From assembly GCA_050010755.1 (NCBI GenBank), contig JBEKKK010000001.1:960001-1024000 (forward strand): a stretch of DNA of 64,000 nucleotides. The letters are read 5' to 3'. Both the position numbers and the translations under genes were made by a program. Below are positions 353-63,759 of the stretch, piece by piece. Position 1 is the first letter of the stretch. Each line of letters begins with the position of its first letter. Below the pieces are notes generated by a model, which saw only the letters and a program-made list of their open reading frames with translations, was not told where the DNA came from and searched no databases. This DNA is from Candidatus Bathyarchaeia archaeon (GTDB lineage: Archaea > Thermoproteota > Bathyarchaeia > Bathyarchaeales > Bathycorpusculaceae).

Positions 353-464
353 TTCTCTCGATTAATAGTAATAGGCACTAGTATAAAATCCGTTGGTAGC
401 GCGCGCGCATGACTCGATAGGGCTTTTTAAGAACCATACAAGAGATAGTTTGCAATGTGAAAAA

Positions 465-821
465 ATGGTTACAAACACAACACCCAAAATTGTCTACCTT
501 GATCAGAAATGTTGGATTGATTTTGCGAGATTTTATTATGGTCAACCGTCTGGAGACGGAAAAGAACTTGTATCGAAAATCCTCGAGTACTCTGAGATAT
601 CCCTGCTATTGTTTCCTCTTTCTATTTCCCATTTGGAAGAAACGCTACGCATTACAAGTAGCAGACGCAAGAGCCAACTCGCTTCTTTGATGGCAAAACT
701 ATCAAAGGGCTACTCATTACAGCCACACATTGATGCAGTGGTTGAAGCTGAGATTGAGAACATCGTCTTGAGGAAAGCAGGGGTTCTTCGAGTGAACATA
801 AAAAATTTGCGCGCGCTATGA
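465..821 (+). pseudogene. PIN-like protein, N-terminal fragment apparently truncated at a GCGCGCGC motif
   Basis: KIVYLDQKCWID...FPLSISHLEET resembles a PIN-fold start. The ORF ends NLRAL* through the octamer at 809-816, and another octamer lies at 399-408. Confidence 0.5.
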
Positions 822-845
822 ATAAGCTGAAGCCGAGTGCTGGAG

Positions 846-1709
846 CTATTTGCTTAGAAGAATTTTAAGTCGTTCAACCAATGATTCTCTGCTTTGAGGC
901 TGTTCCCTCCAGACCTTTCCGTAATCTCTATATTCCTCACCAGATATCTTTTCTTTTCTCTGCAATTCGTTAAGCAGCTCTGCGAATTCTCGCGAGTGTA
1001 TTTGTTCATTTTGTGTTTCACTATCTGGTTGGGTCCTTCTGATCGTCTCGTTTGAGTGATCGTTCTTTAGAGGTGGAGGGTAATTATCGTACAAGAATCT
1101 AGAGAAATATGGGAGTTCCCAAGGGTGGGTTTCCGGTAAGCTCTCCTTGACTCCGAGGAGTTCGGACATTAGGAACTCATACGTCTCGCCCAAACTCACG
1201 TATTGCGCTGGAAAGCTAGGTTTGTCCACAATCTCGGTGAGGAAATGCTGCAGATGGTCAGTGCTGAAAATTGGCAATACATCCCCATGTTCATAGTTGA
1301 AACAAAAGATAATCTTCTTCGCGATATGTTTGTCGCGCCCCAAACCCCTTATCTGTTCCCATTGCGCATCCACTTTTTGAGCTAGAGATTTCTTACGGTC
1401 AACTGTGACAGCAAGCAGTTCCTTGAAATCTTCGAATTGATTTCTGATTTGCCCGAAGATATTTGGGTAAGATCTCAAATGCCCAATTGGCTTCAGATAA
1501 TATACTAACCAACGGAAGAATTCTCCAATCTCCTTTGATTGCGGAATGAAGATATCATTTGGGTTAAGAGTCTCTATTGATTCAGGGTTCTCGGCAAAGG
1601 GATATCTCGCTCTAAAATCCTTCAATAATTTCATCGCACTGTCTATTTCGACCTTGATTACTCCGTTCTTGTCAAAAGCCCTCACTTTCTCTAACAGAGA
1701 CTCTTTCAT
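846..1709 (-). CDS. Hypothetical protein, possibly a restriction-associated (McrB N-terminal-like) domain
   Basis: 287-aa ORF. The KKIIFCFNY...VLPIFS segment is reminiscent of such domains; no GTPase motif. Lies near a methyltransferase. Confidence 0.4.
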   Translation of the reverse strand: MKESLLEKVRAFDKNGVIKVEIDSAMKLLKDFRARYPFAENPESIETLNPNDIFIPQSKEIGEFFRWLVYYLKPIGHLRSYPNIFGQIRNQFEDFKELLAVTVDRKKSLAQKVDAQWEQIRGLGRDKHIAKKIIFCFNYEHGDVLPIFSTDHLQHFLTEIVDKPSFPAQYVSLGETYEFLMSELLGVKESLPETHPWELPYFSRFLYDNYPPPLKNDHSNETIRRTQPDSETQNEQIHSREFAELLNELQRKEKISGEEYRDYGKVWREQPQSRESLVERLKILLSK

Positions 1710-1939
1710 TTGGCAATCACTCTCGATACCGGTTCCATTGAGGTTTTAACAGCGTGTGTCAAGCAGAATTATAGGGTCGAGCAGATATTTGCATAGCGGT
1801 TGTTCACAGTCCCAAATGATCTTATGTTATATGGAACAAAAGGGAAAAAGAGGAAATGCGGAGACTTCGCCACGCACAACTCCCGGAACCCACACCTCTG
1901 CTCTTCATTCTCAAAGACATAGCAAGAAAACGAAGCTTC

Positions 1940-4423
1940 TCAGCGCGCGCTGTGCGGGTTTGGGTTTTGTTTGTAGAGTATTGTTTTTGCGATTTCTCGC
2001 CAGATGATGGCTATTATGGCGAAGCCTAGTATTATGGCGAATTGTTCTGCTGCGACGGGGGCTAGTTTGAGTTGGCTTGTGACTGGTGGAACCGTTTGGG
2101 CGATGATTAGAAACGCAAAGGCGAGAACTGCCCACAGATCCATTATCCTGTTCGATAATGGGCCTATTGCGTATAGTGGTTCTTTTTCGGATCGCATGAC
2201 AAAGGCCAGGATGATGTGGCCCATTATCCACGCTGAGAAAGCGTATGCTTGCACGGTTACGGCAGGTAGCCTCTGTGACCACGCGTAGAAGTATGCGAGC
2301 ATCACGGCTACGAATAGGCTCGTGGCGGATATGGCCATGTCCGTTACCATTTTCGAGTCAGGAAACTTTGCTTTTGGATCTCGGGGTTTTCTGTCGTAGA
2401 TTGTTTTTTCGGCCGGTTCGGTGACGAATCCTGCGGAAGCGGCGATGTCCATGAACAGTTCAAGCACGATAATCTGTATCGGAGCAAACGGCAAGGGCAT
2501 GGCCGGATAGAAATACTCGATGCCCAGCGCAAAAACGAACAGTGAGATAAGTGCAGCTTTGATTGCCAAATAGTACTTTAGACCCTTCCTAAGGTTGTCG
2601 AAGAAAGTGCGGCCTTCGAACACGGCGCGACCGATGGTCACAAAGTTGTCATCGGTCAAAACGACGTCTGCAGCTTCTTTGGCCGCATCTGTGCCCTTAG
2701 TGCCCATGGCGATTCCAACGTCGGCTCCCTTCAAAGCCAGGGTGTCGTTGACCCCGTCGCCCGTGACCGCGACCACTTCACCATTCGCATGCAGCGCCTT
2801 GACGAGCGCGTATTTGTCCTCAGGCGTCGTTCTTGCAAACACGGAGACCTCTTTGACGATGTCCTGAACTTCCTTGTCGGAAATGCCTCGAAGCTGCTCA
2901 CCCGTGAACACCTTTCCCGATGGGATTCCGACGCTTTTCGCGATGTAAGCCGCGGTCTGCGGGTGATCACCCGTGACCATGATGGTTCTGATTCCAGCAT
3001 TGCGAATAGACTGAATCGTTTCTTTGACGCCAGCGCGTGGAGGATCCTCGATTGAGACTAGGCCGATGAAATCCCAGTTTCCCTCTAATTCTGAAAGCGG
3101 CAATTCTGCTTCATCAGCAGAGACTTCTTTTTCTGCGACGCCGATTACCCTTCTTCCCTTTTCAGCTTCACTCTCGAGTTCATCTCTGAAAACATCACCC
3201 TGACCGTCCGCGCCCAAAATTTCCTCAGGTGCCCCCGCAGCTGAGAGCATGAAGACCCCGTTCTTCTCGCGCAGCACGGCTTTGGTCCGCTTGCCTATCT
3301 GGAAGCCCCGTTCGTGAACGACTCTGCCGAAGTCCGTTTGCACCTTTAGCGACTTGGCTTTTTCCAGAATTGCCTTATCAGTCGGGAACAGTGACCCCTC
3401 TGTCAATGCTGCCGTGGCTGCGCTCAGCGTCTTGGCCTCTTCTTGGCGCGGGTAGACTTGAACGACCTGCATCTTATTCTCAGTGATTGTGCCCGTCTTG
3501 TCTGTGAGGATGATGGTTGCATCGCCTAGGGTTTCTGCCGCCTTGAGCTTCTTGACTAGGAAGCCTTCTCGAGAGAGCCTGTATGATCCTAAGCCCAGTA
3601 TCATGGTGATTATGATTGGCAGTTCTTCGGGGATAGCAGCAAATGCCAGTGCCAACCCAGTCAATATCAGCGTTTTGTCCTCAAACAGATCTCGGTATCC
3701 GTAGCGCAAGATGCCCAAAGCAGGGATAACTATGCTGAAGAACATGGCAACGTACGCGAGCGTTATAGAAAGTTTTTTCATGGATAACTGCAAGGGCGTT
3801 TTCGGAGGCTTGATAGCCTGAGCCATGGCGGATATCTTTCCGAACCTGCTGTTCTTGCCCGTTGCATATGCTTCTCCTTGTCCTTCCCCTGAAAGCACGA
3901 GGGTTCCAGCGTAAACATCGTCTCCGACCTTCTTCTCCTGCGGAAGAGACTCGCCCGTTAAAACTGACTCGTCCACTTGAATGTCATATGACACATCGAG
4001 CTTACAGTCCGCTGCAACCCTTGTTCCCTCGACAAAGACCAGCAGGTCTCCGGGAACCACTTTTTCAGTTTCAACCTCGACTATTCTCCCATCCCGCACA
4101 ACCCTTGTCTTGGGAGCCGCAAGCACAGAAAGCGCCGATATAGACTTCTTAGCCCTGAATTCATTCCAGATCTCAACGAAAACCAAGACGAAGATAACGC
4201 TGAAAATCGTAACAGCGTCCTCCACGTTTGGCCACTCGAAAATAGTATAGAGAACGCCTACAACAAGCAAAAGCAGAATCATGGGCTCGACAACTTCTTC
4301 CTTGGCGATGCCCAAGAAACTCACCGTGTAAGGCTTGGCAATCTGATTCGGCCCGACTTCCCGAAGCCTCTCCTCCGCCTTAGCAGTCGAAAGGCCTTCA
4401 GACTTTACGCCAGAACCCTGCAT
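1940..4423 (-). CDS. Cation-transporting P-type ATPase (type II, Ca2+-like)
   Basis: TGES, PEEL, DKTGT phosphorylation motif, MVTGD, TGDGVND; 827 aa. Confidence 0.95.
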   Translation of the reverse strand: MQGSGVKSEGLSTAKAEERLREVGPNQIAKPYTVSFLGIAKEEVVEPMILLLLVVGVLYTIFEWPNVEDAVTIFSVIFVLVFVEIWNEFRAKKSISALSVLAAPKTRVVRDGRIVEVETEKVVPGDLLVFVEGTRVAADCKLDVSYDIQVDESVLTGESLPQEKKVGDDVYAGTLVLSGEGQGEAYATGKNSRFGKISAMAQAIKPPKTPLQLSMKKLSITLAYVAMFFSIVIPALGILRYGYRDLFEDKTLILTGLALAFAAIPEELPIIITMILGLGSYRLSREGFLVKKLKAAETLGDATIILTDKTGTITENKMQVVQVYPRQEEAKTLSAATAALTEGSLFPTDKAILEKAKSLKVQTDFGRVVHERGFQIGKRTKAVLREKNGVFMLSAAGAPEEILGADGQGDVFRDELESEAEKGRRVIGVAEKEVSADEAELPLSELEGNWDFIGLVSIEDPPRAGVKETIQSIRNAGIRTIMVTGDHPQTAAYIAKSVGIPSGKVFTGEQLRGISDKEVQDIVKEVSVFARTTPEDKYALVKALHANGEVVAVTGDGVNDTLALKGADVGIAMGTKGTDAAKEAADVVLTDDNFVTIGRAVFEGRTFFDNLRKGLKYYLAIKAALISLFVFALGIEYFYPAMPLPFAPIQIIVLELFMDIAASAGFVTEPAEKTIYDRKPRDPKAKFPDSKMVTDMAISATSLFVAVMLAYFYAWSQRLPAVTVQAYAFSAWIMGHIILAFVMRSEKEPLYAIGPLSNRIMDLWAVLAFAFLIIAQTVPPVTSQLKLAPVAAEQFAIILGFAIIAIIWREIAKTILYKQNPNPHSAR

Positions 4424-4596
4424 AACAACGCAGAACTAATTACGACTTTTAAAAGTTTGTCCAAAAGGATACTGTTAACTTAAGTTACCCGCTTTCTTCG
4501 TGATATGGTTCTTCGATTTTTCCTTCTATCAACTCTTTAATGTTCGTTCCAAAATTCACGAAAGCCTTAAACGCACAAATTCAAAGAGAGGAGGAC

Positions 4597-4827
4597 ATGA
4601 GTCAGACGAAAGGGCTAAACACTTTTGAGAAGTTTCTCTTGGTCGTAGTGATTGTTGGCTATGCTTCCATATTCATTCCTACGCCATTCGTTTTTGGGAA
4701 TTGGACAATCTTGGAATTGATCTGTGTCGTCATTCTTGCAGTTGCTGCACCATACGAATACTATAAGTTTTTTAAGAGACGAATAGAACAGCGACGGCAA
4801 GCGAAAGAGGCTAAGAATCTGATCTGA
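4597..4827 (+). CDS. Small two-TM membrane protein
   Basis: GAGGAGG Shine-Dalgarno before ATG 4597; two hydrophobic helices and a basic tail. Confidence 0.65.
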   Translation: MSQTKGLNTFEKFLLVVVIVGYASIFIPTPFVFGNWTILELICVVILAVAAPYEYYKFFKRRIEQRRQAKEAKNLI

Positions 4828-5076
4828 CGACAGTTAACAGCTAGACGCCATAAGACGAGAAGTTACCAGAAGCGTCCAAAAGGTTCTGTCAAGTCTGCGG
4901 TTGATTCATCCTCCCTTCAAAAATCGGTTGATGATCTGTTGGCAGAACTCCTCCTCTGTTGACAATCGGATGAAAGCTCGTATTTTCGCGTTATTCAAAT
5001 CGAAATTCTTAAGTTGATACAGATTAGATATGCTAGACTGTTAACCTTAGTTCGATACTCTGGGTCGGTGATACGT

Positions 5077-5256
5077 ATGACAAATTGTCCAAAATGTGGA
5101 ACTGAGATGGAAGCTAAAGGGGAGCTGGCCAACGACTCTAGGCAACCAGACTTCGTAACAACCTTTTATCAATGCCCAAATTGCAAGAATATTGAAATGC
5201 AAAAAGTTGTCGTCGAGCGTAGACGCACTTTAGGTGGCAGAACATTTCATAAATAA
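5077..5256 (+). CDS. Small zinc-ribbon (CPxCG) protein
   Basis: CPKCG...CPNC; the stop TAA is immediately followed by GCGCGCGC. Confidence 0.7.
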   Translation: MTNCPKCGTEMEAKGELANDSRQPDFVTTFYQCPNCKNIEMQKVVVERRRTLGGRTFHK

Positions 5257-5299
5257 GCGCGCGCTAATTTTGGGAATAGAAAAAATAGTCGTTGTTGGC

Positions 5300-5608
5300 T
5301 TATTTCAGTAGTTTCATGCTTTCTTCGAGACTCATTGCCAATTTGATTTCGCTCGTGTTCCAAGCCATCCATTTTACCATTTCTGGTTCCATTGAGAATT
5401 CTTGCAGTGCATCTGAGCTTGGAGCTTCATACACCCATATCAACAGATGCTCCGGAACCACGGTCCATGCTCCAACCCTCTTGACTCCATGTTTCTTCTC
5501 CAATCCGCCCAATTTTGCTGGCAATGCTAAAGTCATGGCCTTCATTTTCTCATTGTTAAGCGGACAATTTTCAACGGAATGTCTAGAAATTATCAGAAAT
5601 ATTGGCAT
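5300..5608 (-). CDS. Small ferredoxin-like fold protein (GYD/DUF3303-like)
   Basis: MPIFLIISRHSVENCP...EHLLIWVYEAPS pattern; likely start ATG 5608. Confidence 0.6.
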   Translation of the reverse strand: MPIFLIISRHSVENCPLNNEKMKAMTLALPAKLGGLEKKHGVKRVGAWTVVPEHLLIWVYEAPSSDALQEFSMEPEMVKWMAWNTSEIKLAMSLEESMKLLK

Positions 5609-5932
5609 ACCAACACTCCTCAAAGTGAGAATTAAGGAAAGTCGGATATAAGCTATTTGCACGTAGGTTCTGTTAACTTCTCATGGAGCTTAAACCCTTG
5701 TTAACTACCGTGGGATAAATCCAGTTTTTTTGTATATTTGATTCAAAAATCGGAGATAAACTTAAAAGTTACACTCGTGTGCATAATCGGAATTGAATGA
5801 GGGAAATGGTGGTAAGTTTCTTTCCCTTCTCTCCTTTCTCCCCTAGTGGAGAAAGCCACCATCTTCCCTCATCTCCTTTTAAAGGAGCTTTTTGGTGGTC
5901 TCCGATTTTTCTTTTAGTGCGCGCCTTCTTGT

Positions 5933-6634: not shown

Positions 6635-7219
6635 TTAACTTCCCCTCAAGCACTAGGGGCCTCCGAAAAAGATAAACTGTTCCCCTTCCCGACACCTAGG
6701 CTATTATTAGCGCGCGCTCAACTGGAGAATATGGCTAGATTTGGAACAGAATAGGGTACAATTCTGAAAAACCCCTTAATAATTAAAAATCACTGAATCA
6801 ATTCGGAGTTGAGAACAAGTCTGCAACACCATTTCCTCAAGTGGACTCGCAACGGTCCAGAGAAAGTTGAAAGTTAATTTTTCCCTCCTTTCTCCCTTCA
6901 GCCTCTGGACCCTTGCGAGAACTGTAGAGGAAAAGGTTAGGCAGACAACCGTGAGTTGGCGACGATGGAAATGATGAGATGTCAACCTTGGCATTGGCGG
7001 AGAGGAGAAGAAAGCGAGCAAGAAAAGAAGGTGAATAAAGTGTTGGAAATACCTCATTATACCTACATATTTTCTGAAGAATGCAAGAAAGGTGAATATA
7101 AACTCAAAATAGAGAGGACGGTTATAAAGAGCGAGAATAGGAAAAAGCACATTCTATGGTAGTTCAAGTGGAAGCACGCGCGCTTGTCGCCGTTTGTGGT
7201 GCGTGCTTCGCGCGGCCAT

Positions 7220-7591
7220 CTAGCGTCCTGGCGGTGTTGAAATTGACGCTTGGGACCTGTCTATGTTCTCTCTGATGATGCCGTATGCCTTTTCTGCGTC
7301 TGCGTTGGGCAAATCGTTTAGCGTCAGAGGTTCTCCCCCGAACCTCAACGTTAGCTTGAGTGTGGACCGCACTATTCCCTTGTCTAACACCACGTTTGCG
7401 ACATCCCTGTAATTATAATCGGTGTAATCCTTCTTCAACCCAAGCGCATGCGGGTGCCGCAGAATCACCCTCTCATTCGTAATGACCACAGAGTCGATGT
7501 TGATCTTAGGGTGATAGATCTTCTGTTGAATATACACTTCCACCTTTTCATCCGGCCCAAGCAGGCCCTTCAAATCACCAGGAGCAGACAT
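7220..7591 (-). CDS. Bacterial-type PH-domain protein
   Basis: LLGPDEKV...VVITNERVIL pattern typical of bPH domains. Confidence 0.7.
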   Translation of the reverse strand: MSAPGDLKGLLGPDEKVEVYIQQKIYHPKINIDSVVITNERVILRHPHALGLKKDYTDYNYRDVANVVLDKGIVRSTLKLTLRFGGEPLTLNDLPNADAEKAYGIIRENIDRSQASISTPPGR

Positions 7592-7955
7592 AATCAGTCA
7601 ACCAATCATACGAGAACCCACCAGTCATATTTGCCTTTTGCCCCACCCCGACCCCGTCCTTGGATTGCTTTGGAAAGCGGAAACGAGAATCTTCAAAGAT
7701 ACTCTATTATGCAAGACATTAAGGAAAGTTCAATCTTGAGGATTTCAGCTAAAGGTAAGAAGCCTTTTCCGAAAGTGGTTTTTCGTGATGGCCTTCAAGA
7801 TAAGCAGATTAAGAATTTCCTTGAAACTCGAAAACTAATATTGACTTTTCCTAGAGACCCACGCATAACTGTTTCGCGCGCGCTAAGAATCGGTAATATG
7901 CACCAACCTTAAAAGACGCGAAAACAATGAAGACATAGGAATAGATTTGGCACAA

Positions 7956-8027
7956 ATGGGAAGACATAGGAAAGCTAAACCTCCAAATAAGCGACTGAAG
8001 AAAATCTTGAAAAAGACAGGTCGCTAG
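7956..8027 (+). CDS. Putative 23-aa basic peptide MGRHRKAKPPNKRLKKILKKTGR
   Basis: Manual translation. The TAG overlaps the octamer at 8027; the ORF lies between octamers 7876 and 8027. Confidence 0.35.
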   Translation: MGRHRKAKPPNKRLKKILKKTGR

Positions 8028-8038
8028 CGCGCGCCATA

Positions 8039-8413
8039 TTAGATGACTCTAAGGATTGCCACGATATTGTTGGTAACGACAAAGGCATACATTGCTATCA
8101 TTACAATGATTGTTGCAAAGCCCATCTTGAATGTTGTCTCATGGTTGTACTTCTTTAGCCTTTTCAAGATGAAGTAGAATACATACACCAGTGCTGGAAC
8201 TATGGTCACTTTCAGTAGTAGCATTGGAAGCATTGCATTTGCTACTAATGGATTCAGCTCTATGCCTATTCCTGTTCTTACTGCGAAGACTGTGGTCAGT
8301 GCATCTGCATAGTTGAGCGATATGACTGTGACTAGTCCTATTATTGATAGTCTAAGGTCTTGCTTCAAATAGCACACCTTCAGCGCGCGCCGAAGTCGTC
8401 GAGAGGCAGACAA
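8039..8413 (-). CDS. DUF5658-like membrane protein (true start probably downstream of the octamer at 8383)
   Basis: LNYADALTT...GIELNPL...LLKV...VVTNN motifs. Confidence 0.7.
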   Translation of the reverse strand: MSASRRLRRALKVCYLKQDLRLSIIGLVTVISLNYADALTTVFAVRTGIGIELNPLVANAMLPMLLLKVTIVPALVYVFYFILKRLKKYNHETTFKMGFATIIVMIAMYAFVVTNNIVAILRVI

Positions 8414-8709
8414 AGCACCTTCTATGGCCTTTCTCTATCAGAACAGGTCGTTATGGAGAACTAAAGCAGTTATTTCAGAATCTGCAATATGAAAAAACTG
8501 ATAACATACTCCTGCCCAATTGCAAAACTGCGACCTCTACCCGCATCTTGAACGAGTTTTCAGTTTGGCTAGAGCGCGAGCGCGCGCGCACGCGCGCGCC
8601 CGACTGTTCGTCCCTACCGCATGCATGCACACACGCGTATGGGCAAGAAAACACTCTGGGCGGCGCGCGTTAAGAAGTATTGGAACTTAACTGATTTCGG
8701 AACTAGGCG

Positions 8710-13030: not shown

Positions 13031-13276
13031 CGGCTACATGTTCTCTCGGATCATCTTGGCTAAGCGGCGGATTCCCTCGTCTATCTGCTCTTTCGTGGGA
13101 TAGCTGAAGTTGAGGTGCATCGCGTTCTGTCCTTTGCCGTCGCAGTGGAAGGCTGATCCGATCACGTAGGCCACCTTGTTTTCTATGGCTTTGGGCAGCA
13201 GCTCGTTCGCGCTCATCTTCTTGGGCAGTTTCACCCATAGGAACAGGCCGCCCTCCGGATGCGTCCAAGTCACGCC
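13031..13276 (-). pseudogene. Displaced 3' end of the aminotransferase gene (246-bp imperfect direct repeat of 15409-15654)
   Basis: Manual alignment gives ~14 mismatches in 246 nt and only 2 amino-acid changes. Homology stops exactly at GCGCGCGC 13277-13284. Confidence 0.92.
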
Positions 13277-13387
13277 GCGCGCGCTGAAATCGAAGATTAG
13301 AATCGATTAACTCCATCATAAGGGCACGTGAGTCTAAAAAAAAGAGGGGGATATCACAGCTTCCCCTTTTTGATTCTGCCGTTGGAA

Positions 13388-15141: not shown

Positions 15142-15411
15142 TAATAGGTATAAGCATTGCCCCTAACGGGTCGCGCCTAGCGCGCCTAAACGTTTTCTTG
15201 TATGAACTGCGCTGGCCAAGAGCCTTCCAGTCCAGTGATATCTTTTTCTAAACCAAGATGGAGAAGTGGCAAACCTAGTCCACGCCCACTTTATCCGCTA
15301 AGGCTTTCGCAAGATCTGCGAGCCATGTTCGGCCATTGCCCCGGAGACGATCATCTCGGCTTCGCTCTCAAGCAGCACCAGCGAGAGGATGAGCGCGCGC
15401 AAGCCCAGCGG

Positions 15412-16617: not shown

Positions 16618-17022
16618 TACACCGTCCTCCTCCGCATATTAGAGCGCAGACCCCATTTTCACACTCAAACCGTCAACCTACATAAGGTTATTGCACCCAC
16701 CTGACGGATCACAAACATGAAAACGCCCGAATTCACAAAAAACCAGAACTGACCCTCAGCAACTATTTTCAAAACCGCTGTTCGGCCGCCTCAGATTCCA
16801 TCCAAATAACGGAGAAGAGATTGATGGACGAAATCTCCGAGCGCCTAACCGTCATAGACCTTACGTAATAAGGTTTTTCATCGTGGATTCTGTTACCTTG
16901 TCGTCTGTTTGTTCTCCTTGTTACATTTCGTCTGCTGAGAGGACTTTATGAAAAAGCGAATAGACCTTGCTCTAGTGTTCTTCGTTGTCACAGCGCGCGC
17001 TTTTTCGGTCTTTAAGCGCGTG

Positions 17023-24034: not shown

Positions 24035-24481
24035 CTAGCGCGCTTGTGAATTTCGTTTTAGAAGCTCCACAAATCGTCTTTTGTGCTTTGGGCTGTCAAT
24101 AAATCTAAAGTTGGAAGAATGCATCTCATATTTCGAGCGCTGATGAAGATATTTCTTTCTGAGAAAAACGTAGACTCTGATTTTCCACGACCTTACCCGA
24201 ATCTCGGCGTTTCTGTGTATTGCCCAAGCATCGAATTGTAACTTATTAATTCTTTCTTCCCATCGCTCAGGATGTTTCTGTTTCCATTTTCTGTAATGCT
24301 CTCGTGCGTAGTCCTGTTGTTTTTCGAGGTTTGCCTGCCTCCATTTCTTTTGATAATCCCGCGCGTGCGCGCGCTCTTCTGCAAGGTGTTCTTTCCTCCG
24401 CTTTTTCCGTCGTTCTAGTATCTTTTCTCGATGGGTCAAATAGTATTTCTTAGCATATTCTCGTCTTTCTTTTCCTGTCAA
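24035..24481 (-). CDS. Basic helical hypothetical protein (mobile-element type)
   Basis: REYAKKYY...RDYQKKWR...REHYRKWK repeats; ends QAR* through GCGCGC. Confidence 0.55.
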   Translation of the reverse strand: MTGKERREYAKKYYLTHREKILERRKKRRKEHLAEERAHARDYQKKWRQANLEKQQDYAREHYRKWKQKHPERWEERINKLQFDAWAIHRNAEIRVRSWKIRVYVFLRKKYLHQRSKYEMHSSNFRFIDSPKHKRRFVELLKRNSQAR

Positions 24482-26580: not shown

Positions 26581-26906
26581 TTTGTTTTTTCCTCCTTTCT
26601 CCTTTTCGGTTTTTGTTACGGGATTAAGCTTGCCGTTAGCAGCTCTATACCCGCTCAGCCCAACGGACTTTTAACGTGCCTTTGGGCAAGGACACAGTCG
26701 GGAGCATGCCCCCTTGCACGCAAGAGTCGACTCTGCCCGACTGGATGCGCAGTTCGTTGCGGTTTACTTTTAAGCTTTGTGGGACCTTTTATGTATGATT
26801 CTTCTAGCTCTTTTGAGAATGAGAAAGAAGCCACTTACGCATAAGAAATGTTTCACATACAACATTAGCGCGCGCATGACGAACTTTTTATGCGTACTCC
26901 TATTGT

Positions 26907-27604: not shown

Positions 27605-27634
27605 GACGCAGCTTTCTTCAGCGATAGGCGCGCG

Positions 27635-28321
27635 CTATTCTATTTTGTCCTTTTTAGCCAGGTTGTGCCTTGCGCATAGTAGTTGGATGTTTTCGGTCAC
27701 TAGTGACGATCCCCCTTTAGAATAGGGAATGATATGGTCAAAGTGCAGGTTGTCGTGGCTTCCACAGATGACGCAGGCCCCCTTATCTCGTTTCCATACT
27801 TCCATTTTTACAGATGCTGGGATGATGCGGTTGTGATCAATCTCCTGGGACGAGACTTGAGGAATTTCATCGGTCAGTTCAAGCTTGAATTTGAAAACAT
27901 TACGACTATTGCTCTTTTCCTGCCATGAATCCACAAGTTTAAAGATGCCATTATAGGTCCAGATGCCTGGTCTGATCTTTTCGTAGACCTTCACAAGCTC
28001 GGCCTTTTTCTTTTGCTGTTTATAGTCGTTCGCGGCCTCGTAGAACAATCCGTTCTGAGTTAGAGAGCCAGTTGGATTGTACATCGGTTGATCCACCGTT
28101 TTGGGATTTCGTCCCCCAGCCAATTTTGGAGCATCATGGCCTTCATAAATTAGTACTCTGCCGTTTTCCTCGATCCTATCGGCGTATGGAGCACCTGTCC
28201 TTATGCTCATCAAAATAACACTGAACCCACCACGCAATCGAAAATTCATTCCCCTTTGAAGATTGACGCCCTCTTCTCTGCACACGTCTAGATAGGAAAG
28301 CAGGTCTCCAACGTTGAGCAT
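27635..28321 (-). CDS. SRA/PUA-like domain + HNH endonuclease (putative modification-dependent restriction enzyme)
   Basis: SVILMS...PYADR...LIYEGHD N-domain; RDKGACVIC...HFDHIIPYSKGG...NIQLLCARHN. Likely start MLNVGD. Confidence 0.82.
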   Translation of the reverse strand: MLNVGDLLSYLDVCREEGVNLQRGMNFRLRGGFSVILMSIRTGAPYADRIEENGRVLIYEGHDAPKLAGGRNPKTVDQPMYNPTGSLTQNGLFYEAANDYKQQKKKAELVKVYEKIRPGIWTYNGIFKLVDSWQEKSNSRNVFKFKLELTDEIPQVSSQEIDHNRIIPASVKMEVWKRDKGACVICGSHDNLHFDHIIPYSKGGSSLVTENIQLLCARHNLAKKDKIE

Positions 28322-32971: not shown

Positions 32972-33104
32972 TTCTTAGAGACAAAAGTCCGAGTTATCAG
33001 ACTGGGGATCATAAGAGCCAATAGGCACGCGAGTTTTCCTGACGCAAAATAGCGCGCGCATTGGCACAAAAATGAAATAGAACAAATAGGCTAGAGAGGG
33101 CATT

Positions 33105-34142
33105 ATGATGTCACTTACTATCCCAACGAGATCACATCAAAGGTTATTCATGTTTAATGTTGGTCATGGCGATAGCGTTCTGATTTGCGATGACAACTGT
33201 CATAGTCTTCTTGTTGATATCGGGACACAAACACCCCGGGAATACGCTCATATACCCCATCTGATAGAGAACCTGACCTACCCTCGGAAGTGCGGTTTGA
33301 TCGTATCGCATTACCACTGGGACCATTACAGTTTATTTCGTTATTTTAGGCATCCCGACGTCCTCTTTTCTAATGTCTATTTTCCAGACTTTGAAATGGG
33401 GGGCCCAGTCGGTACTCTCGGGCTTGCTATGATGGAATTTATAAAAACTGCTGTTTCCTTCGAGTTTGGCAGCTACAGAATACTTCCCGAAATAATTGCT
33501 AATGCCAATCTATCTGTGACGTTTTGCAGAAAAGGCACAATAATCAATGAAATAACTCCTTCTGTGCGGGTGTTCTGGCCCGACTTCTCTCATACTTCCT
33601 TAATAAACAGCAAAATAGTCGAAGCCGCCGAAAAAGTCAGAGGCAGTGTTGAACCCATCATGGATAAATATGGCATCAAGAAGCCGCCCAATTCCGAAAA
33701 GAATTACTCAATGAGATCCTTCTTCGAAGATCTTGAACGAGAAGAGGTCGCATATCGTCAGCAGCCCGAATCCGAGAAGACTGAAGTGCACAAAAAACTT
33801 GAAAGAATTGAAAAAGACCTTAGCCCTGTAGCAAATATCCTATCCATTGCTTTCAGGACTAAGTACTGGAGCTTCCCCAGATTTTTGTTTCTCGGCGATA
33901 TGGAGAGTTCTGTACTTGACAAAATCTACATCCCGAACTCGCGCGATTATGATTTCTTAAAGGCCTCGCATCATGGAACCGAATTTGGAAGCAGTCTGGA
34001 AAACCTCAACACAGAGTTTCTATTGATCTCGCGGGTCGAAAACAGCAAACACCTTTCCGGGATCCATGATGGCTACATAAACAGAGTTCATTACAGAATG
34101 ATGCTCAGCACAAGTTACCTCGGAGATTGTTTTTTCATCTAG
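33105..34142 (+). CDS. Metallo-beta-lactamase-fold hydrolase (ComEC/Rec2-like)
   Basis: NVGHGDS, LVDIG, SHYHWDH, FLGD, KASHHG; bracketed by octamers at 33052 and 34142. Confidence 0.82.
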   Translation: MMSLTIPTRSHQRLFMFNVGHGDSVLICDDNCHSLLVDIGTQTPREYAHIPHLIENLTYPRKCGLIVSHYHWDHYSLFRYFRHPDVLFSNVYFPDFEMGGPVGTLGLAMMEFIKTAVSFEFGSYRILPEIIANANLSVTFCRKGTIINEITPSVRVFWPDFSHTSLINSKIVEAAEKVRGSVEPIMDKYGIKKPPNSEKNYSMRSFFEDLEREEVAYRQQPESEKTEVHKKLERIEKDLSPVANILSIAFRTKYWSFPRFLFLGDMESSVLDKIYIPNSRDYDFLKASHHGTEFGSSLENLNTEFLLISRVENSKHLSGIHDGYINRVHYRMMLSTSYLGDCFFI

Positions 34143-34208
34143 CGCGCGCTCACAATATAGGAGAAACATAATAACTGATAGAGATCGGCTTCGATTTCAT
34201 CTGCAATC

Positions 34209-40304: not shown

Positions 40305-40305
40305 G

Positions 40306-48017: not shown

Positions 48018-48374
48018 ATGTTGAGCTGGCAAATCACATTTCAAACTGAAGCCCTGCAAAGCTTCTTTCAAAATCTGCCCCCAAACTTGAAGACGGCTGT
48101 GCAGAATGCAGAGTTAACGGTTGCAGAGCGAATCTTGTTTACGATGCAAACGTTGACCCCTGTGCGCACAGGCTTCCTACTTTCAACAGAGGGCATTCAG
48201 CCGCAGGGAGATTGGGGCTTCACGATTTATGCGCGCGCCTTCTACGCTCATTATGTAGAGTTCGGCACGAGACGCATGTCTCCGCGGCTGTTCATGACAC
48301 GGGCGATTGAGCTACACAGGGGCGACTTGCAAAATGAGATTTGGAGCAACATTGCAGCCATGATTATCGGGTGA
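48018..48374 (+). CDS. HK97 gp10-like tail completion protein
   Basis: TPVRTGFL, YAHYVEFGT, PRLFMTRA. Confidence 0.85.
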   Translation: MLSWQITFQTEALQSFFQNLPPNLKTAVQNAELTVAERILFTMQTLTPVRTGFLLSTEGIQPQGDWGFTIYARAFYAHYVEFGTRRMSPRLFMTRAIELHRGDLQNEIWSNIAAMIIG

Positions 48375-52492: not shown

Positions 52493-52496
52493 TAAG

Positions 52497-53614: not shown

Positions 53615-53627
53615 AGGTGTGGAAGAA

Positions 53628-54017: not shown

Positions 54018-54267
54018 GCGGGCTCTCACCAGAAAGGGGCATCGCAAAGGCGCGCGCGGAGCTTTTGAAGACTTCGAGATCACACCCAACGAAGAGCTTG
54101 TTTATGGTGTCAAGTTTGCAATAGGCATGACAGTCTGCCTGAGCGCCATTGAAATTGCGCACATGGCCTTTCTACACAGCTGGAACAGCGAAGTGTTCAC
54201 TGCGATGACAGGTCTGACAGGATTGGTGACTGGCATCCTCATAGGCCATCGTGTTAGCGCGTGCTGA
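54001..54267 (+). CDS. Small two-TM membrane protein (holin-sized)
   Basis: MEDWVKRAL..., two hydrophobic helices. Confidence 0.6.
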   Translation: MEDWVKRALTRKGHRKGARGAFEDFEITPNEELVYGVKFAIGMTVCLSAIEIAHMAFLHSWNSEVFTAMTGLTGLVTGILIGHRVSAC

Positions 54268-54376
54268 CGAATCAAGTGAAAATCCACTCTCAGCAAGCAT
54301 AACAGCCCTCAGCGAACTGAGTTCCCCCCTTTTCATTGTTTTAATTCTCCTTCCCAGTTGCTAGTAGGTGTGAAAG

Positions 54377-59723: not shown

Positions 59724-59786
59724 ACAGGTAACTCCCAGATGTTTGACGCGCGCGCCACTCTTGATTTGCCCGCCGCACACTTTTGT

Positions 59787-60905: not shown

Positions 60906-60960
60906 CGTTTTACCATCAGATCAAAGATTTCGAAAAACTAAACAATGCCGTCTGGGCCGC

Positions 60961-62841
60961 TCACTTCACCTTGTAATCCTCAGAGTCGACTACTTTTCCC
61001 TCGCCAGTTGGAGGCTCCCCACTTGTTGGGGACTCCCCGCCAGGAGGCGGGGCTTGTTGCCTCGCCTGTTGTGCGCTTGCCTGTTGATAAACGGCTGTTC
61101 CGACCTCCTGAAGGACCTTAGTTAGTTCGTCGGATGCGGATTTGATTTTGTCCAAATCGGAGCCGCCCAGCGCATCTCTCAACGCAGAAACAGCTACGTC
61201 TATCTTGTTCTTCTGGTCTTGTCCTATTTTATCTCCAAGATCCTTCTTGGTCTTTTCAGCCGTGTACATGAGGTTGTCCGCGTTGTTTCTCAACTCGGCC
61301 TCCTCACGTTTTCTCTTGTCCTGTTCAGCATACTGCTCAGAGTCTCTGATTAGCCTCTCTTTCTCCTCTTTCGACATCTTTGTTGAAGCTGTTATCGTTA
61401 TTTTCGCTTCTTTTGCCGTTCCCAAGTCTTTTGCGGTGACGTTGATTATTCCGTTTGCGTCTATGTCAAAGCTCACTTCGATCTGTGGAACGCCTCTAGG
61501 AGATGGTGGTATTCCTTCTAGGTTGAACATGCCTAGGGACACGTTGTCTGTTGCCATTGCCCGTTCTCCTTGAAGCACGTGAATCGTGACGGCTGTTTGG
61601 AAATCAGCTGCAGTCGTGAATACTTGGCTTCTCCGCGTGGGAATGGTGGTGTTCTTCTCGAGTATCTTGGTGAAAATGTGGCCGAGGGTCTCGACGCCGA
61701 GAGACAAGGGCGTAACGTCAAGCAGAAGCAGATCCTTCACCTCTCCTGTGAGCACGGCCGCCTGAATTGCGGCGCCAACAGCTACACATTCCATTGGATC
61801 TATGCCTCTTTCAGCCGGCTTACCCATAATCTGTTCCACAAACCTTTGCACAAGAGGCATTCTGGTCATGCCGCCTATGAGAATTATTTTGTCTATATCT
61901 TTTGGCGTCAGCTTCGCGTCCTCGAGCGCCTTGACAATTGTGCCTTGTGTTTTCTGTACTATAGGCTGTGCCATGCCTTCGAGTTTTGCTCGGGTAAGGG
62001 TGAGGTGCAGGTGTTTCGGCCCTGAAGCGTCGTTGTACAAGAACGGCAAGTCAATGTCGGTCGCCATCAACGTCGAGAGTTCTATCTTTGCCTTTTCTGC
62101 AGCCTCCTTAAGTCTCCCCATGGCGCTCTTGTCTGCTGCCAGGTTGATGCCTGTCTGTCTTTTGAATTCGTCAAGCAGATAATCCATGATTGCTTTGTCG
62201 AGGTCCGTTCCGCCGATTTGTGTGTCGCCGCTGGTTGACAGTACTTGGAAGACTCCTTTTCCGAAATCCATCACGGTCACGTCGTGCGTGCCTCCGCCGA
62301 AGCTGAAGACAAGTATCTTCATCTCTTTCTCGATCTTATCGACTCCGTACGCGAGGCAGGCTGCAGTCGGTTCATTGATTATTCTTGCAACTTCGAAGCC
62401 TGCTATCTCTCCCGCGTCCTTTGTTGCTTGGCGCTGGTTGTCGTTGAAGTGAGCAGGCACCGTGATTACTGCTTTCCTTATCGGAACTGCCAGATAGGTT
62501 TCCGCATCTTTCTTGATCTTTTGCAGAATGAATGATGAAATCTGCTGTGGGGTGTACTCTTTTCCGTAAATATTTACTTTATAATCAGTGCCCATCTTCC
62601 TTTTTATTTCGTACACGGTTCCTTCGGGGTTGGCAGTTGCCTGCCTCTTAGCCGATTCACCCACCAACAGTTGGCCATCTTTGGTGAAGGCCACGACTGA
62701 GGGGAACATTTTTCCCGCCATGGTAGGTCCTTCGGCACTCGGTATGACCGTTGAGCGTCCATTCTCGTAAATGGCCGCAGCCGAGTTTGTCGTTCCCAAG
62801 TCTATACCAAGTATTTTTTCTCCCGCTTTAACATTACTCAT
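60961..62841 (-). CDS. dnaK: Chaperone DnaK
   Basis: [44 protein letters not shown]. Confidence 0.98.
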
Positions 62842-63376
62842 CTGAATTCATCTCCTTTTGTGATTTTGAAGGTTTCACCACAACCTTAACAATGCTCGGT
62901 CTAATCACTTTTTCCCTCATGGTATAACCTTTTCGGACTTCTTCGGAGATTGTGCATCCATCTTCATCTTCACTTTCGGTTGTCGCGATGGCGTGGTGTT
63001 TCGTCGGATCGAAGGGCTTACCCAAGCATTCTATTGGAGATACTCCTTGATTTTCAAGCACTTTCTTCATTTTCTTCAGGGTCATTTCAACGCCCTGAAT
63101 TAAGGCTTCCGCAGAGTTGGTGGAGCGGCCAGACTTGACAGCCAACTCCAACTCGTCTACAACATCCAATAACTCGATGATGAGGGGTTCCGTACAGTAT
63201 TTCTTAACCTCCTCCATCTGCCTCTCGTACCTTTTCTTCAGATTCTCAGCATCTGCCTGAGCATACTTCAGTCTGGTGAGATACTCTTCAGAACGCCTCT
63301 TCTCCATGGCCAAAGCTTTTGTCAAGGCCTCGACTTGGTCAGCATTTTCCTCCGGTTCTTTTTGCTCTTCGCCCAT
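62834..63376 (-). CDS. grpE: Nucleotide exchange factor GrpE
   Basis: [20 protein letters not shown]...RPSIV; upstream of dnaK. Confidence 0.95.
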
Positions 63377-63759
63377 TCAAGGCTCTCCGAATAGTTTGCA
63401 AACCTTTAGCGTGTCGAACAAAAATATATACCTAATGCTCAGTGACTTTTTCCAAATGCGCACGCTCTCCATCTTCTTTGTCTTTTTCGTTGCCTGCGAG
63501 GCCTATTTTCTTCACTTGACAGTACGTACAGAATAGCGCGCGCGACTTTCGACTCGAGCAAATCGACCTTCTTTCAAGTCTTTGAGGAGGAGCTCAAGGG
63601 TATCAGTAAAATCGTCAGCTGACAGTAACTAGCGCGCGCAGGAGGCGAATAACAGTATCGCCTAAGGAAAATGGCTCACAGTCAAAGCTCCTGAAGCCAG
63701 CAAAAATTGTTAAATACGAATAGACAAGATATGGTGCATCGACAATTGAGGAATAGAGT

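Follow-up and report, generated by a model that had tools for sequence, protein, structure and literature searches.

GCGCGCGC in a peat archaeon: a palindrome that looks almost confined to the joints of variable DNA

The octamer GCGCGCGC, in the genome of a peat archaeon of the Bathyarchaeia, looks almost confined to sites where variable DNA has been inserted, deleted or swapped. The motif lies precisely where insertions, deletions, replacements and displaced gene fragments begin or end. Joints that lacked the motif ancestrally now carry it, and elsewhere it has stayed fixed while the neighbouring DNA varies between species. On balance, we favour the reading that tA-GCGCGCGC-Ta forms the joints of the flexible genome within this Bathyarchaeia genus, and patchily in further families of the class, as a self-renewing site of breakage and rejoining. 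Read this way, the motif looks like the joint of an undescribed gene-reshuffling route.

Abundance, form and placement of the motif

The window, which is the whole 64,000-nt stretch that was analysed, holds 25 overlapping matches to GCGCGCGC, while 0.83 are expected (100 dinucleotide shuffles, largest 3). These matches resolve into 23 separate runs, each (GC)4 or longer (Table 1), in agreement with the roughly 23 octamer loci of the original prediction. A genome-wide count against a Markov model, proposed along with that prediction, gave 253 copies compared to 27.3 expected (order-1 model), the top observed/expected ratio among all octamers under this model. The opposite-phase octamer, CGCGCGCG, occurs 109 times genome-wide, and when runs of exact length are counted there are 147 of GCGCGCGC and 22 of CGCGCGCG.

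The full motif is a palindrome of 10-12 bp, tA-GCGCGCGC-Ta. The base at -1 is A in 135 of the 253 copies and the base at +1 is T in 133. The left-hand TA has a background of 5.2%, but is present in 40 of the 94 runs that have no gene within 30 nt. Since the TA flank is kept at this distance from genes, it is not explained by stop-codon selection. No extended conserved arm of the kind found in tyrosine recombinase sites was detected around the 12-mer. As judged from the sequence, the use of exactly four GC units, a single phase and TA flanks points to a sequence-specific enzyme and not to random filler.

Genes were called with our own dicodon caller, which left 81% of the genome coding and 19% non-coding. 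Of the 253 copies, 205 are wholly intergenic and 7 straddle gene ends, a non-coding share of 84%; the share is just 10-12% for the comparison palindromes GGCGCC, GCCGGC and CCGCGG. The only window runs within called genes are those at 1943, 48231 and 54050, plus one in a doubtful small ORF at 809. As had been claimed, none falls in dnaK, dnaJ, the pilus ATPase gene or the 1200-aa gene.

Claims about individual gene ends fared unevenly. TAA-GCGCGCGC at 5257 was confirmed, as were the motif-encoded C-terminal residues at 809 and 1943, and a TAG stop overlaps the motif by its final base at 34142 and, on the minus strand, at 27635. In contrast, the supposed octamer at 24038 is only the hexamer GCGCGC, the run at 28384, said to close a bracket around an HNH gene, is CGCGCGCG and thus in the opposite phase, and the ORF at 33105-34142, proposed to encode an MBL protein, has no Pfam match at E<=0.001. 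The general claim that the motif abuts stop codons does not extend to the genome, where a 3' end is no more than 3 nt away for 6 of 157 runs (4%) and for 3% of random places within the same intergenic regions. The G of a TAG stop is supplied by 7 of 233 runs genome-wide, and the association with stop codons is weak. There is a moderate bias toward 3' ends, with 48 of 157 runs (31%) within 30 nt versus 18% at random places. The 60 nt upstream of starts are avoided (19 of 148 runs, 13%, versus 23%), and motif density is highest in convergent spacers, lower in tandem spacers and lowest in divergent ones.

Table 1. Motif runs in the window, with one displaced gene fragment, and their surroundings in the window and in relatives
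Feature	Position	Strand	Context
(GC)5 run	399..408		Intergenic, 47 nt from start of minus-strand gene ending at 352; no adjoining block shared with relatives found
(GC)4 run	809..816		Codes final residues RAL* of doubtful ORF 393-821; 30 nt off 3' end of gene 846-1709 (-)
(GC)4 run	1943..1950		In last codons of P-type ATPase gene 1940-4423 (-); block shared with G004 begins at 1960
(GC)4 run	5257..5264		Separates two blocks found on different contigs in relatives: 4983-5248 (G002:C1) and 5266-5661 (G002:C2, G002:C4, G003:C4); truncated G002:C4 copy of the latter stops directly at GCGCGCGC (L005)
(GC)4 run	6710..6717		TA on both sides; multi-copy block 6735-6954 begins 18 nt away
C(GC)4 run	7875..7883		Intergenic; no block edge within 200 nt
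(GC)4 run	8027..8034		4 nt downstream of stop of DUF5658 gene (8039-8413, -)
(GC)4 run	8383..8390		Left edge of 180-nt block 8390-8570, where similarity begins at 8390; block present in 4/4 relatives, on other contigs
(GC)5 and C(GC)4 runs, 1 nt between	8580..8599		10 nt from right edge of block 8390-8570; ~110 nt downstream of stop of 1200-aa beta-helix gene
Displaced 3' aminotransferase gene fragment	13033..13276	-	94% copy of 15411-15654
C(GC)4 run	13276..13284		Caps truncated interior end of the aminotransferase gene fragment (alignment)
(GC)4 run	15393..15400		11 nt downstream of aminotransferase stop; block common to G002 and G004 begins at 15411-15413
(GC)4 run	16993..17000		Within 1.9-kb segment 16748-18679, which G002 and G004 lack; aminotransferase block and block 18679-18887 are separated by ~85 nt in G004:C28 and G002:C10
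(GC)4 run	24367..24374		In uncalled ORF 24035-24481; no adjoining shared block
(GC)4 run	26868..26875		Between two blocks located apart in relatives: 25232-26864 (G002:C3) stops 4 nt before, 26905-27602 (G001:C6, G004:C3) begins 29 nt after
(GC)4 run	27628..27635		Left edge of defence island, last C within TAG stop of SRA-HNH gene (-); shared block ends at 27602, and G001 carries C(GC)4 on same side of same block (L011)
(GC)4 run	33052..33059		Upstream of ORF 33105-34142
(GC)4 run	34142..34149		First G completes TAG stop of ORF 33105-34142; provirus block shared with G001 begins at 34300
(GC)4 run	48231..48238		Inside provirus ORF 48009-48374; among the few coding copies
(GC)4G run	54050..54058		In ORF 54001-54267, right end of provirus
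C(GC)4 run	59747..59755		Derived deletion joint between prenyltransferase start and dnaJ stop; G002, G004 and G003 share a ~5-kb segment (95.6% and 83% mutual identity) that G000 lacks
(GC)4G run	63536..63544		At a synteny break upstream of grpE: G002, G003 and G004 cease to be similar at 63431-63456, next gene is elsewhere (other contigs) in 4/4 relatives, and G002 and G004 also diverge from each other here
(GC)4 run	63632..63639		Travels with gene starting at 63760; G002:C10 has GCGCGCGC on same side of this gene's block, on a contig other than that of grpE (L020)

The motif at the edges of variable DNA

Synteny was compared at fine scale in one contig pair, G002:C6 and G004:C3, which are ~95% identical and collinear over ~200 kb. 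If the motif marks accessory-gene boundaries, as originally predicted, it should coincide with synteny breaks, and it does. A run of (GC)3 or longer lies within 3 nt of the break at 11 of the 25 alignment breaks, whereas random positions gave a mean of 0.67 and a maximum of 4 (500 trials). Inside the aligned blocks were 0 of the 40 G002 runs and 2 of the 22 G004 runs. Conserved non-coding DNA contained no runs in either genome (14,916 nt and 15,195 nt, with 19.6 and 23.1 expected), so the motif does not mark intergenic DNA in general. It is kept out of conserved sequence, whether coding or non-coding. Only 1 of 98 G000 runs falls within blocks shared with the sampled G002/G004 DNA, compared to 23% of random non-coding positions. 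Intragenomic repeats have 2348 ends, of which 38 come to within 5 nt of a run, where 4.6 would be expected. At 12-14 of the 25 G002/G004 breaks there is no motif, and other signatures are seen there, such as direct repeats of 7, 11 and 29 bp.

The polarity of gains and losses was set with a single outgroup. A new 6.9-kb insertion in G004, containing PAS kinases and response regulators, is capped by the motif at both ends, and the same site in G000 and G002 is 55-64 nt without the motif. A lone motif marks the joints of derived deletions J19 and J21, as well as the window joint at 59747. Two internal gene pieces, of 155 nt and 316 nt, are each bracketed by motifs, and a truncated MITE end in G004 is capped by one. 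The source genes of both pieces and of the aminotransferase fragment lack the motif at the corresponding points; for the aminotransferase, this was seen in the intact genes of G000, G002 and G004.

At other joints, the motif stays and its surroundings change. J13 keeps (GC)3-4 at the same edge in all three species (3/3), adjoining unrelated DNA of 73 nt, 105 nt and 4.7 kb, and the right-edge motif of J5 is common to G002 and G004. J24 has a single (mutated) copy in one genome and a 1.2-kb segment between two copies in the other. At J10, the counterpart of 146 nt with a central (GC)3.5 in G002 is exactly GCGCGCGC in G004. Point changes were seen only in the few coding copies.

Candidate enzymes and competing explanations

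Among 301 Bathyarchaeia genomes, 21 carry 4-39 copies of the 12-mer TAGCGCGCGCTA, while the reversed control reaches at most 3. This enrichment is patchy and reaches other Bathyarchaeia families. It had been suggested that a recombinase, nuclease or methyltransferase would follow the distribution of the motif. None of the candidates tested did, these being IS5-like transposase, Ku, RVT_1 (reverse transcriptase), Y1 transposase, C5 methylase, Cas1, resolvase and ResT/TelK (protelomerase). The prediction that the motif acts as a site of crossover, a scar of insertion or a filler from repair where accessory DNA ends is upheld for the association with joints and not for the mechanism, and the term integron-like is an analogy.

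A mechanism for a break-and-rejoin site can be proposed. A break at or beside a (GC)n tract would expose ends with a self-complementary stretch. If such an end met another (GC)n end, the result would be insertion of a cassette between two copies, excision to one copy, or replacement; if it met an unrelated broken end, a new copy would be seeded. The tract would then be a hotspot for breaks as well as a residue of repair. Out-of-register pairing of alternating tails would yield the 6-, 10- and 12-base variants, and placing a full (GC)4 on a motif-free end would need 8-nt overhang fill-in or new synthesis. Since the cargo genes have no mobility function, the activity would act in trans. The direction of cause may run either way, with the motif attracting breaks or breaks leaving the motif.

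Another possible explanation, which we consider a lesser contender, is that breaks occur anywhere and that 3' ends are extended with alternating G and C during end joining, whether by an NHEJ polymerase/primase or by some other polymerase. Tails of this kind are self-complementary, so that two of them would pair and be sealed, and (GC)n would be only a scar and not a site. This would account for the new motifs that sit on deletion joints and on either side of captured fragments, where the sources have neither motif nor microhomology, and for joint tracts ranging from 6 to 12 bases. A complete NHEJ operon, with LigD primase-polymerase, Ku and a ligase with phosphoesterase, is encoded by G002, and Ku is also present in G003 and G004; these three are the genus members with the highest motif density. 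However, neither Ku nor PolDom was found in G000 (93% complete) or G001, and Ku is present in 3 of the 21 12-mer-rich genomes compared to 72 of 301 overall. Untemplated additions should not produce a single-phase (GC)4 mode or TA flanks, nor does this explanation fit the reuse of one edge by three species at J13.

It seems unlikely that the octamers are by-products of an IS5/PIF-like transposon that targets TA and of its MITEs, arising as excision footprints (TA + GCGC + GCGC + TA), as solo tips or as excision ends that were joined wrongly. Such elements are resident: a 1.9-kb IS (DDE_Tnp_1 plus DUF772) and MITEs of 130-215 nt have ends of the form TA/GCGCGC-ATGC-CTGTTCCTAAATT.../TA, with GCGCGC as the terminal six bases. 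Lone octamers show the same TA flank preference, the J13 joint in G002 begins with this IS end, and transposase matches in the genus rise with motif count (13 in G004, 7 in G002, 2 in G003 and 1 each in G000 and G001). Even so, a recognisable terminal repeat adjoins just 6 of the 213 (GC)4 runs of G000, and 5 of 162 such runs from the sampled G002/G004 DNA. The transposase occurs in 6 of the 21 12-mer-rich genomes compared to 65 of 301 overall. In family f24 it is common, being present in 38 of 71 genomes, but the 12-mer is all but missing there (3 of the 71, one copy each). Captured fragments do not have their break points at TA, and resecting an excision break cannot give a deletion with a perfect footprint. 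No motif-only indels of 8-10 bp were seen in 108,739 aligned columns, a weak argument since MITEs also avoid conserved DNA.

We find it improbable that the motif is a passive passenger, a regulatory or protein-binding element (terminator, insulator or silencer site) that looks like a joint because the accessory genes carrying it are what comes and goes. The 3'-end bias and the order of spacer types would suit such an element, as would the copies that move with a neighbouring gene to new contexts (63632 and 27628). A passenger would not be expected to cap interior breaks of gene fragments and a truncated MITE, to occur by itself at the joints of deletions that brought in no gene, or to be missing from the conserved spacers of two genomes, ~15 kb in each. 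An 8-mer is also too short for a terminator hairpin, and a T-run after the motif is absent.

Slow drift, in which methyltransferase or mismatch-repair bias turns near-matches into the palindrome by point substitution, the route that has been proposed for HIP1 of cyanobacteria, is very improbable. The motif is indeed a hyper-abundant 8-bp palindrome limited to certain lineages, but no C5 cytosine methylase above the family cut-off was detected in G000, G002, G004, G107 or G115, copies are missing from conserved DNA and arise with indels instead of substitutions, and point-change variation is limited to the few coding copies. Although every compared genome is metagenome-assembled, fusion of contigs from different strains at the motif can be given almost no credence, since contigs X5 and X8, from independent runs of other studies, cross at least 12 of the motif sites between window positions 1 and 20000 without a single difference (covering 1-5019, 5378-7433, 7481-12641, 13214-15529 and 15592-17437), assembler word sizes far exceed 8 bases, and motif positions recur across assemblies of different species.

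Comparison with known systems

The cyanobacterial palindrome HIP1 (GCGATCGC) occurs often within genes and in the core genome and is linked to a CGATCG methyltransferase. Both motifs are 8-bp GC-rich palindromes, many-fold over-represented and lineage-restricted, but the present one is 84% non-coding, has no copies in conserved DNA, originates with indels and has no C5 methylase found with it. REP/BIME elements with RAYT (Y1) also number in the hundreds as extragenic palindromes, often downstream of genes and with a patchy phylogenetic spread. However, REPs are hairpins of 20-40 nt mobilised by a Y1 transposase, whereas the unit here spans 8-12 bp, and searches of G000, G107 and G115 gave no Y1_Tnp.

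TA-targeting transposons and MITEs (Tc1/mariner-Stowaway, PIF/IS5-Tourist) share the TA flanks, the resident family ends in GCGCGC, and 4+4 bases would yield the octamer. They differ in that 97% of octamers have no adjoining terminal repeat, break points are not at TA, and within the class the presence of the transposase does not follow that of the motif. End-joining additions, such as V(D)J N/P nucleotides, filler DNA and the products of LigD polymerase, vary in sequence, and palindromic ones are known. As with these, the bases here are absent from both parents and lie exactly at illegitimate joints; unlike them, a single defined palindrome comes back in hundreds of copies and is used again as a site, and Ku does not track it.

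Integrons (attC x attI, IntI) resemble the present system in that cassettes lacking mobility genes, either promoter-less or with a single gene, are moved in trans and have palindromes between them, and in having one site in both single-copy and bracketed states (J24 here). In contrast to integrons, no 57-141 bp attC structure, common cassette orientation or integrase-adjacent array was seen here, and joints form at non-site DNA too. The closest in behaviour are the Neisseria dRS3 and intergenic mosaic elements, in which short inverted repeats flank variable blocks and act as repeated exchange sites. The dRS3 repeat is 20 bp long, has a defined spacer and is linked to a recombinase of the phage/IS110 type, whereas the unit described here is 8-12 bp and arises anew at deletion joints and on gene fragments.

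Abundance and form of the palindrome

The source genome (2.19 Mb in 8 contigs, 47.7% G+C) contains 253 copies of the (GC)4 octamer GCGCGCGC, against 27.3 expected under an order-1 model, the largest observed-to-expected excess among octamers. All DnaK neighbours of this genome are Bathyarchaeia MAGs, which identifies the lineage and sets aside an initial assignment to ammonia-oxidising thaumarchaea. The window (G000:C1:960001-1024000, G000 being the source genome) holds 25 overlapping matches where 0.83 are expected, and these form 23 separate runs of (GC)4 or longer, in agreement with the roughly 23 loci of the original prediction. The excess is phase-specific; runs of exact length number 147 for GCGCGCGC and 22 for CGCGCGCG. 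The copies are clustered, with 59 spacings below 1 kb compared to 22.8 expected, and the window lies in one of the two dense regions of contig 1. The motif is rich in all five genomes of the genus (168-646 copies), while most other genera of the family have 0-14.

Among the 253 copies, A is found at position -1 in 135, T at +1 in 133, T at -2 in 100 and A at +2 in 109. Position counts showed no conservation more than 2 nt to either side of the octamer. These preferences define the unit as the palindrome tA-GCGCGCGC-Ta, conserved over 8-12 bp, and the otherwise diverse flanks rule out that the octamer is part of a longer repeat. The dinucleotide TA stands to the left of 40 and to the right of 28 of the 94 runs that lie more than 30 nt from any gene (background 5.2%). 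Since the preference is strongest in these gene-distant copies, it is a property of the element and not the result of selection at stop codons. Many copies had been thought to abut stop codons, but the frequency of abutment (4%) is not above chance (3%), and the G of TAG was supplied by 7 of 233 runs. In motif pairs, the inner flanks are no more inverted-repeat-like than the outer ones, with the exception of one IS and one MITE family. At one locus of a relative (G002:C1:161353-161953), GC runs with identical flanks are spaced 120 nt apart (also 240 nt), pointing to a tandem array that repeats about every 120 nt.

An assembly artefact was excluded. Independent peat metagenome contigs from other studies span at least 12 motif sites without differences, covering window positions 1-5019, 5378-7433, 7481-12641, 13214-15529 and 15592-17437. 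In these parts, the metagenome contigs break at multi-copy blocks and not at motifs. Motif positions also recur across assemblies of different species.

The motif at joints of accessory DNA

Synteny was compared mainly between two contigs of related genomes of the same genus, G002:C6 and G004:C3, which share about 95% identity and align collinearly, in 26 blocks, over some 200 kb. A (GC)3 or longer run lies within 3 nt of 11 of the 25 breaks, whereas 500 random trials gave a mean of 0.67 and a maximum of 4. For (GC)4 or longer, 8 breaks have a run (chance 0.31). Runs of (GC)4 or longer are nearly absent from the aligned blocks, with 0 of 40 inside them in G002 and 2 of 22 in G004, although 53% and 79% of the span, respectively, is aligned. 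The aligned spacers (14,916 and 15,195 nt) contain no runs, compared to 19.6 and 23.1 expected at equal density, and the unaligned spacers contain 36 and 15. Similarly, 98 runs of the source genome have a block common to the fetched G002/G004 DNA within 2 kb; 1 is inside a block and 19 are within 30 nt of a block end, compared to 23% and 8% for random non-coding positions. Ends of repeated segments in the source genome fall within 5 nt of a run in 38 of 2348 cases (4.6 expected), and in 30 of 942 (8.0 expected) for non-coding ends. The motif is missing from about half of the breaks between G002 and G004, where other signatures are found, namely direct repeats of 7, 11 or 29 bp. Therefore, the motif marks one class of event and not all of them.

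The polarity of single events was assigned with the source genome as outgroup for G002/G004, and G002/G003/G004 as outgroup for the source genome. A 6.9-kb insertion in G004 has GCGCGCGC at one end and GCGCGCGCG at the other. Its genes are for PAS histidine kinases and response regulators, with no mobility gene among them; in the source genome and G002 the site is 55-64 nt without a motif. Two G004 deletions, of about 3.8 kb and 0.7 kb, have joints carrying (GC)6 and TTA(GC)4TAA. The segment of about 5 kb lost from the source genome next to the dnaJ stop (see table) contains internal (GC)3.5-4.5 in G003 and G004. At the point where the truncated aminotransferase copy is capped, the intact genes of three genomes continue without a motif. 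Elsewhere in the source genome, two gene pieces have motifs on both sides, one of 155 nt from the interior of a 776-aa gene and one of 316 nt from a 164-aa gene, and their source genes have neither motif nor microhomology at the break points. In G004, the motif caps a MITE truncated within its terminal repeat.

Some sites appear to have been reused. At break J13, (GC)3-4 is kept at the same edge in three of three species, next to unrelated DNA of 73 nt, 105 nt and 4.7 kb. At J5, G002 and G004 share the motif at one edge and have different inserts. J24 has a single mutated copy in one genome and a 1.2-kb gene between two copies in the other, and at J10, 146 nt with a central GCGCGCG in G002 correspond to exactly GCGCGCGC in G004. 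Taken together, these cases suggest that breaks tend to fall at the tract and that the repaired joint carries the tract again. In a simple footprint test, none of the indels in 108,739 aligned columns consisted of the motif alone. Of 420 runs, 8 rows (6 sites) were lone octamers whose two flanks both align in another genome; most of these are coding copies that differ by point changes. The placement of the motif and the polarity of a handful of events, drawn from MAG data with one contig pair at 95% identity (25 breaks) and single outgroups, support the central idea of the original prediction, in which the palindrome serves as joint sequence for accessory DNA.

Motif-associated and other features of the window
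Feature	Position in window	Context	Relatives
Motif	5257	Separates blocks 4983-5248 and 5266-5661	Blocks on different contigs
Motifs	8383 and 8580	Bracket block 8390-8570
Aminotransferase 3'-end copy, 94%	13033-13276	2 kb from source gene; truncated interior end capped by C(GC)4
Motif	26868	Flanked by block ending 26864 and block starting 26905
Defence-type island	27635-32569	Between conserved block and provirus	Different 4.4 kb in G001
SRA-HNH nuclease	27635-28405	Defence-type island
Weak SIR2-like	28473-29495	Defence-type island
GmrSD N-domain protein	29495-30544	Defence-type island
Methyltransferase-like protein	30664-31917	Defence-type island
Head-tail provirus	34300-54300		65-83% identity to G001:C6:192-214 kb; absent from other three relatives
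Terminase	35003-36385	Provirus
Portal	36637-38070	Provirus
Cement protein	41570-41986	Provirus
Capsid	42004-42897	Provirus
Beta-helix fibre	43851-46421	Provirus
C(GC)4	59747-59755	Between prenyltransferase start and dnaJ stop	Segment of ~5 kb common to G002/G003/G004, absent in source genome
Motifs	63536 and 63632	At grpE-side synteny break

Several other features of the window were observed. Positions 4983-5661 contain two small ORFs, for an 80-aa zinc-ribbon protein and a 120-aa protein without a family; both ORFs are multi-copy in relatives (86-91% identity). Their summed contig depth in peat metagenomes is 54-101, compared to 3-20 for neighbouring DNA, which suggests that the ORFs ride on something abundant and mobile. 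A 35-nt sequence at 14163-14197, containing GCAGATTTAAGATTTCTG, occurs at 88-97% identity in all four relatives, scattered over dozens of places, and metagenome contigs contain it in many contexts. It is neither a tRNA nor an Rfam family and may be a shared promoter box. The 209 nt at 18679-18887 are 96% identical to G002/G004, where neighbouring genes are 80-85% identical; they have no Rfam match and are a candidate conserved non-coding RNA. No tRNA was found at the motif-bounded blocks, and Rfam gave no match at the gathering threshold in the whole window, nor at E<=0.05 in 8300-19900.

The most likely origin of these joints is that DNA breaks at or beside the (GC)n tract and that the resulting ends, bearing a self-complementary GC stretch, are joined again. 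We infer that the partner would be either another such end or unrelated DNA. Joining to unrelated DNA would seed new motif copies, and the 6-, 10- and 12-base variants would fit out-of-register pairing. The fixed length, fixed phase and TA flanks of the motif point to a sequence-specific enzyme.

A broader reading, tentative and on balance doubtful, is that several Bathyarchaeia lineages have a dedicated trans-acting system of gene shuffling that needs in cis no more than the 8-12 bp of tA(GC)4Ta. A sequence-specific enzyme would cut at the palindrome edges to leave self-complementary ends, and any DNA lying between two motif copies could then be moved as a cassette. New copies would be planted when filled-in ends are joined to ordinary breaks, so that the site would spread through the accessory genome.

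Alternative origins and the search for an enzyme

The most tangible link to a known mechanism is an IS5-like, TA-targeting element (DDE_Tnp_1 plus DUF772) at G000:C2:77969-79864 (locus L139) of the source genome, also present on G002/G004 contigs. This element and MITEs of 130-215 nt have the ends TA|GCGCGC-ATGC-CTGTTCCTAAATT, i.e. TA|GCGCGCATGCCTGTTCCTAAATT. The octamers could be a by-product of a TA-specific transposon family, and the preference for TA on both sides of gene-distant runs is as in the footprint of such a transposon. However, the terminal repeat adjoins only 6 of 213 (GC)4 runs in the source genome and 5 of 162 in fetched G002/G004 DNA; for (GC)3 runs, the figures are 17 of 435 and 33 of 237. 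The transposase also does not follow the 12-mer TAGCGCGCGCTA, since it occurs in 6 of the 21 genomes that have 4 or more copies, compared to 65 of 301 overall, and is common (38/71) in family f24, which is almost without the 12-mer. About 17 complete MITE/IS copies occur in the DNA examined, all in non-conserved DNA. None of their empty sites was found because their flanks do not align in other genomes. A separate non-coding repeat of about 450 nt lies at C1:1071523-1071984 and 8 other places of the source genome, with copies 72-84% identical and without a conserved ORF. The ends of the repeat are inverted (GCGCGC-GGGYGAATTAAATAATT), and a conserved stem within it precedes an A/T-run; it could be a MITE or a small RNA gene.

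Another main rival is that the motif is pure repair filler at joints. Ku is usually assumed to be rare in archaea, and its presence in 72 of 301 sampled Bathyarchaeia genomes is far above that. A complete NHEJ operon, encoding a LigD primase-polymerase, Ku and a ligase fused to a phosphoesterase, was found at G002:C3:46205-49271 (L140:5205-8271), and G003 and G004 also have Ku. Against this origin, Ku is in only 3 of the 21 12-mer-rich genomes, and Ku/LigD was not found in the source genome or G001.

A third rival is that the palindrome is a passive regulatory passenger. Using our own dicodon caller (2140 genes, 81% coding in the source genome), 84% of GCGCGCGC copies are non-coding, compared to 10-12% of other GC-rich palindromes. 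Density per kb is 0.68 in convergent, 0.47 in tandem and 0.31 in divergent spacers. Compared to random places in the same spacers, the motif is moderately enriched within 30 nt of 3' ends (31% vs 18%) and depleted within 60 nt of starts (13% vs 23%). A terminator, promoter element or core-gene uptake sequence would not be excluded from aligned spacers as the motif is. An intrinsic terminator or general intergenic signal was rejected, since two genomes each lack copies in roughly 15 kb of conserved spacers and T is favoured only at +1 without a T-run, as was a DUS/USS-type DNA uptake sequence, with exclusion from conserved DNA in place of core or coding enrichment.

Returning to a sequence-specific enzyme, the original prediction had looked to a recombinase, nuclease or methyltransferase whose distribution follows the motif. 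No tested family does so; the MAGs are incomplete, so absence is not proof, and the kin counted are non-independent. Reverse transcriptase (RVT_1) was found in 0 of 31 genomes. Among five motif-rich genomes (the source genome, G002, G004, G107 and G115), a resolvase was found in none and Cas1 in three (not in G002 or G107). The gene families adjoining the motif in the source genome include no conspicuous enzyme family. Of the 68 members of the largest paralogue family there, 17 lie within 150 nt of a run, compared to 243 of 2140 genes overall, and two are among the motif-edged repeats. The 12-mer has 10 copies in the source genome and 4-39 in 20 other genomes of the 301 sampled, and its reversed control at most 3 per genome. 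It is found above all in families f26 and f31, where 9 of 15 and 7 of 10 genomes have at least one copy, with single rich genomes elsewhere (G317, 28; G313, 13; G234, 12). This patchy spread is more in keeping with an activity that can be transferred than with a repair property common to all, and with 21 of 301 genomes the responsible gene should therefore be findable by phylogenetic profiling.

In sediments and peat, Bathyarchaeia belong to the most abundant archaea. Their accessory genomes are large, and to our knowledge no genetic system exists for them. In each genome the motif marks hundreds of joints at which DNA was inserted, deleted or replaced, so that illegitimate recombination in an uncultured lineage can be read and counted directly. 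It can be used now to set the limits of accessory cassettes and to date rearrangements. If an enzyme acts at the motif, it would represent a new class of site-specific joining activity, guided by a signal of 8-12 bp, and would be of interest both as a tool and for the study of how archaeal genomes evolve.

Comparison with known systems

The available parts of the literature contain no description of the tA-GCGCGCGC-Ta motif or of a comparable joint sequence in archaea. The core of hairpin-telomere resolution sites is TA-CGCGCG-TA, but a ResT/TelK-type resolvase (PF16684) was found in 0 of the five motif-rich genomes at E<=0.1. REP/RAYT systems have a hairpin repeat of 20-40 nt, longer than the 8-12 bp unit here, and a Y1 (HUH) transposase in the genome; of the five genomes, only G002 and G004 have Y1 (PF01797). 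Like HIP1, GCGCGCGC is a hyper-abundant 8-bp palindrome (253 vs 27.3). HIP1, however, occurs throughout genes and core DNA and is proposed to arise by substitution, whereas the motif is mostly non-coding, absent from conserved spacers and gains new copies with indels. HIP1 also has a cognate cytosine methyltransferase, and a search for the C5 family only (PF00145) gave 0 of five above the cut-off.

The integron-like patchwork without attC hairpins that had been proposed is correct as to the absence of attC, given the lack of flank conservation in the 253 copies, and the likeness to integrons is one of analogy. The attC sites are imperfect palindromes of 57-141 bp with conserved R and L boxes and lie between cassettes; the unit here is 8-12 bp. 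Integron arrays, which adjoin attI, a promoter and the gene of the tyrosine recombinase IntI, are co-oriented, whereas genes between motifs at window positions 1-19000 lie on both strands. If the motif does serve dedicated gene shuffling, the system would parallel integrons or V(D)J-type joining in archaea, and its recombination signal would be the shortest known.
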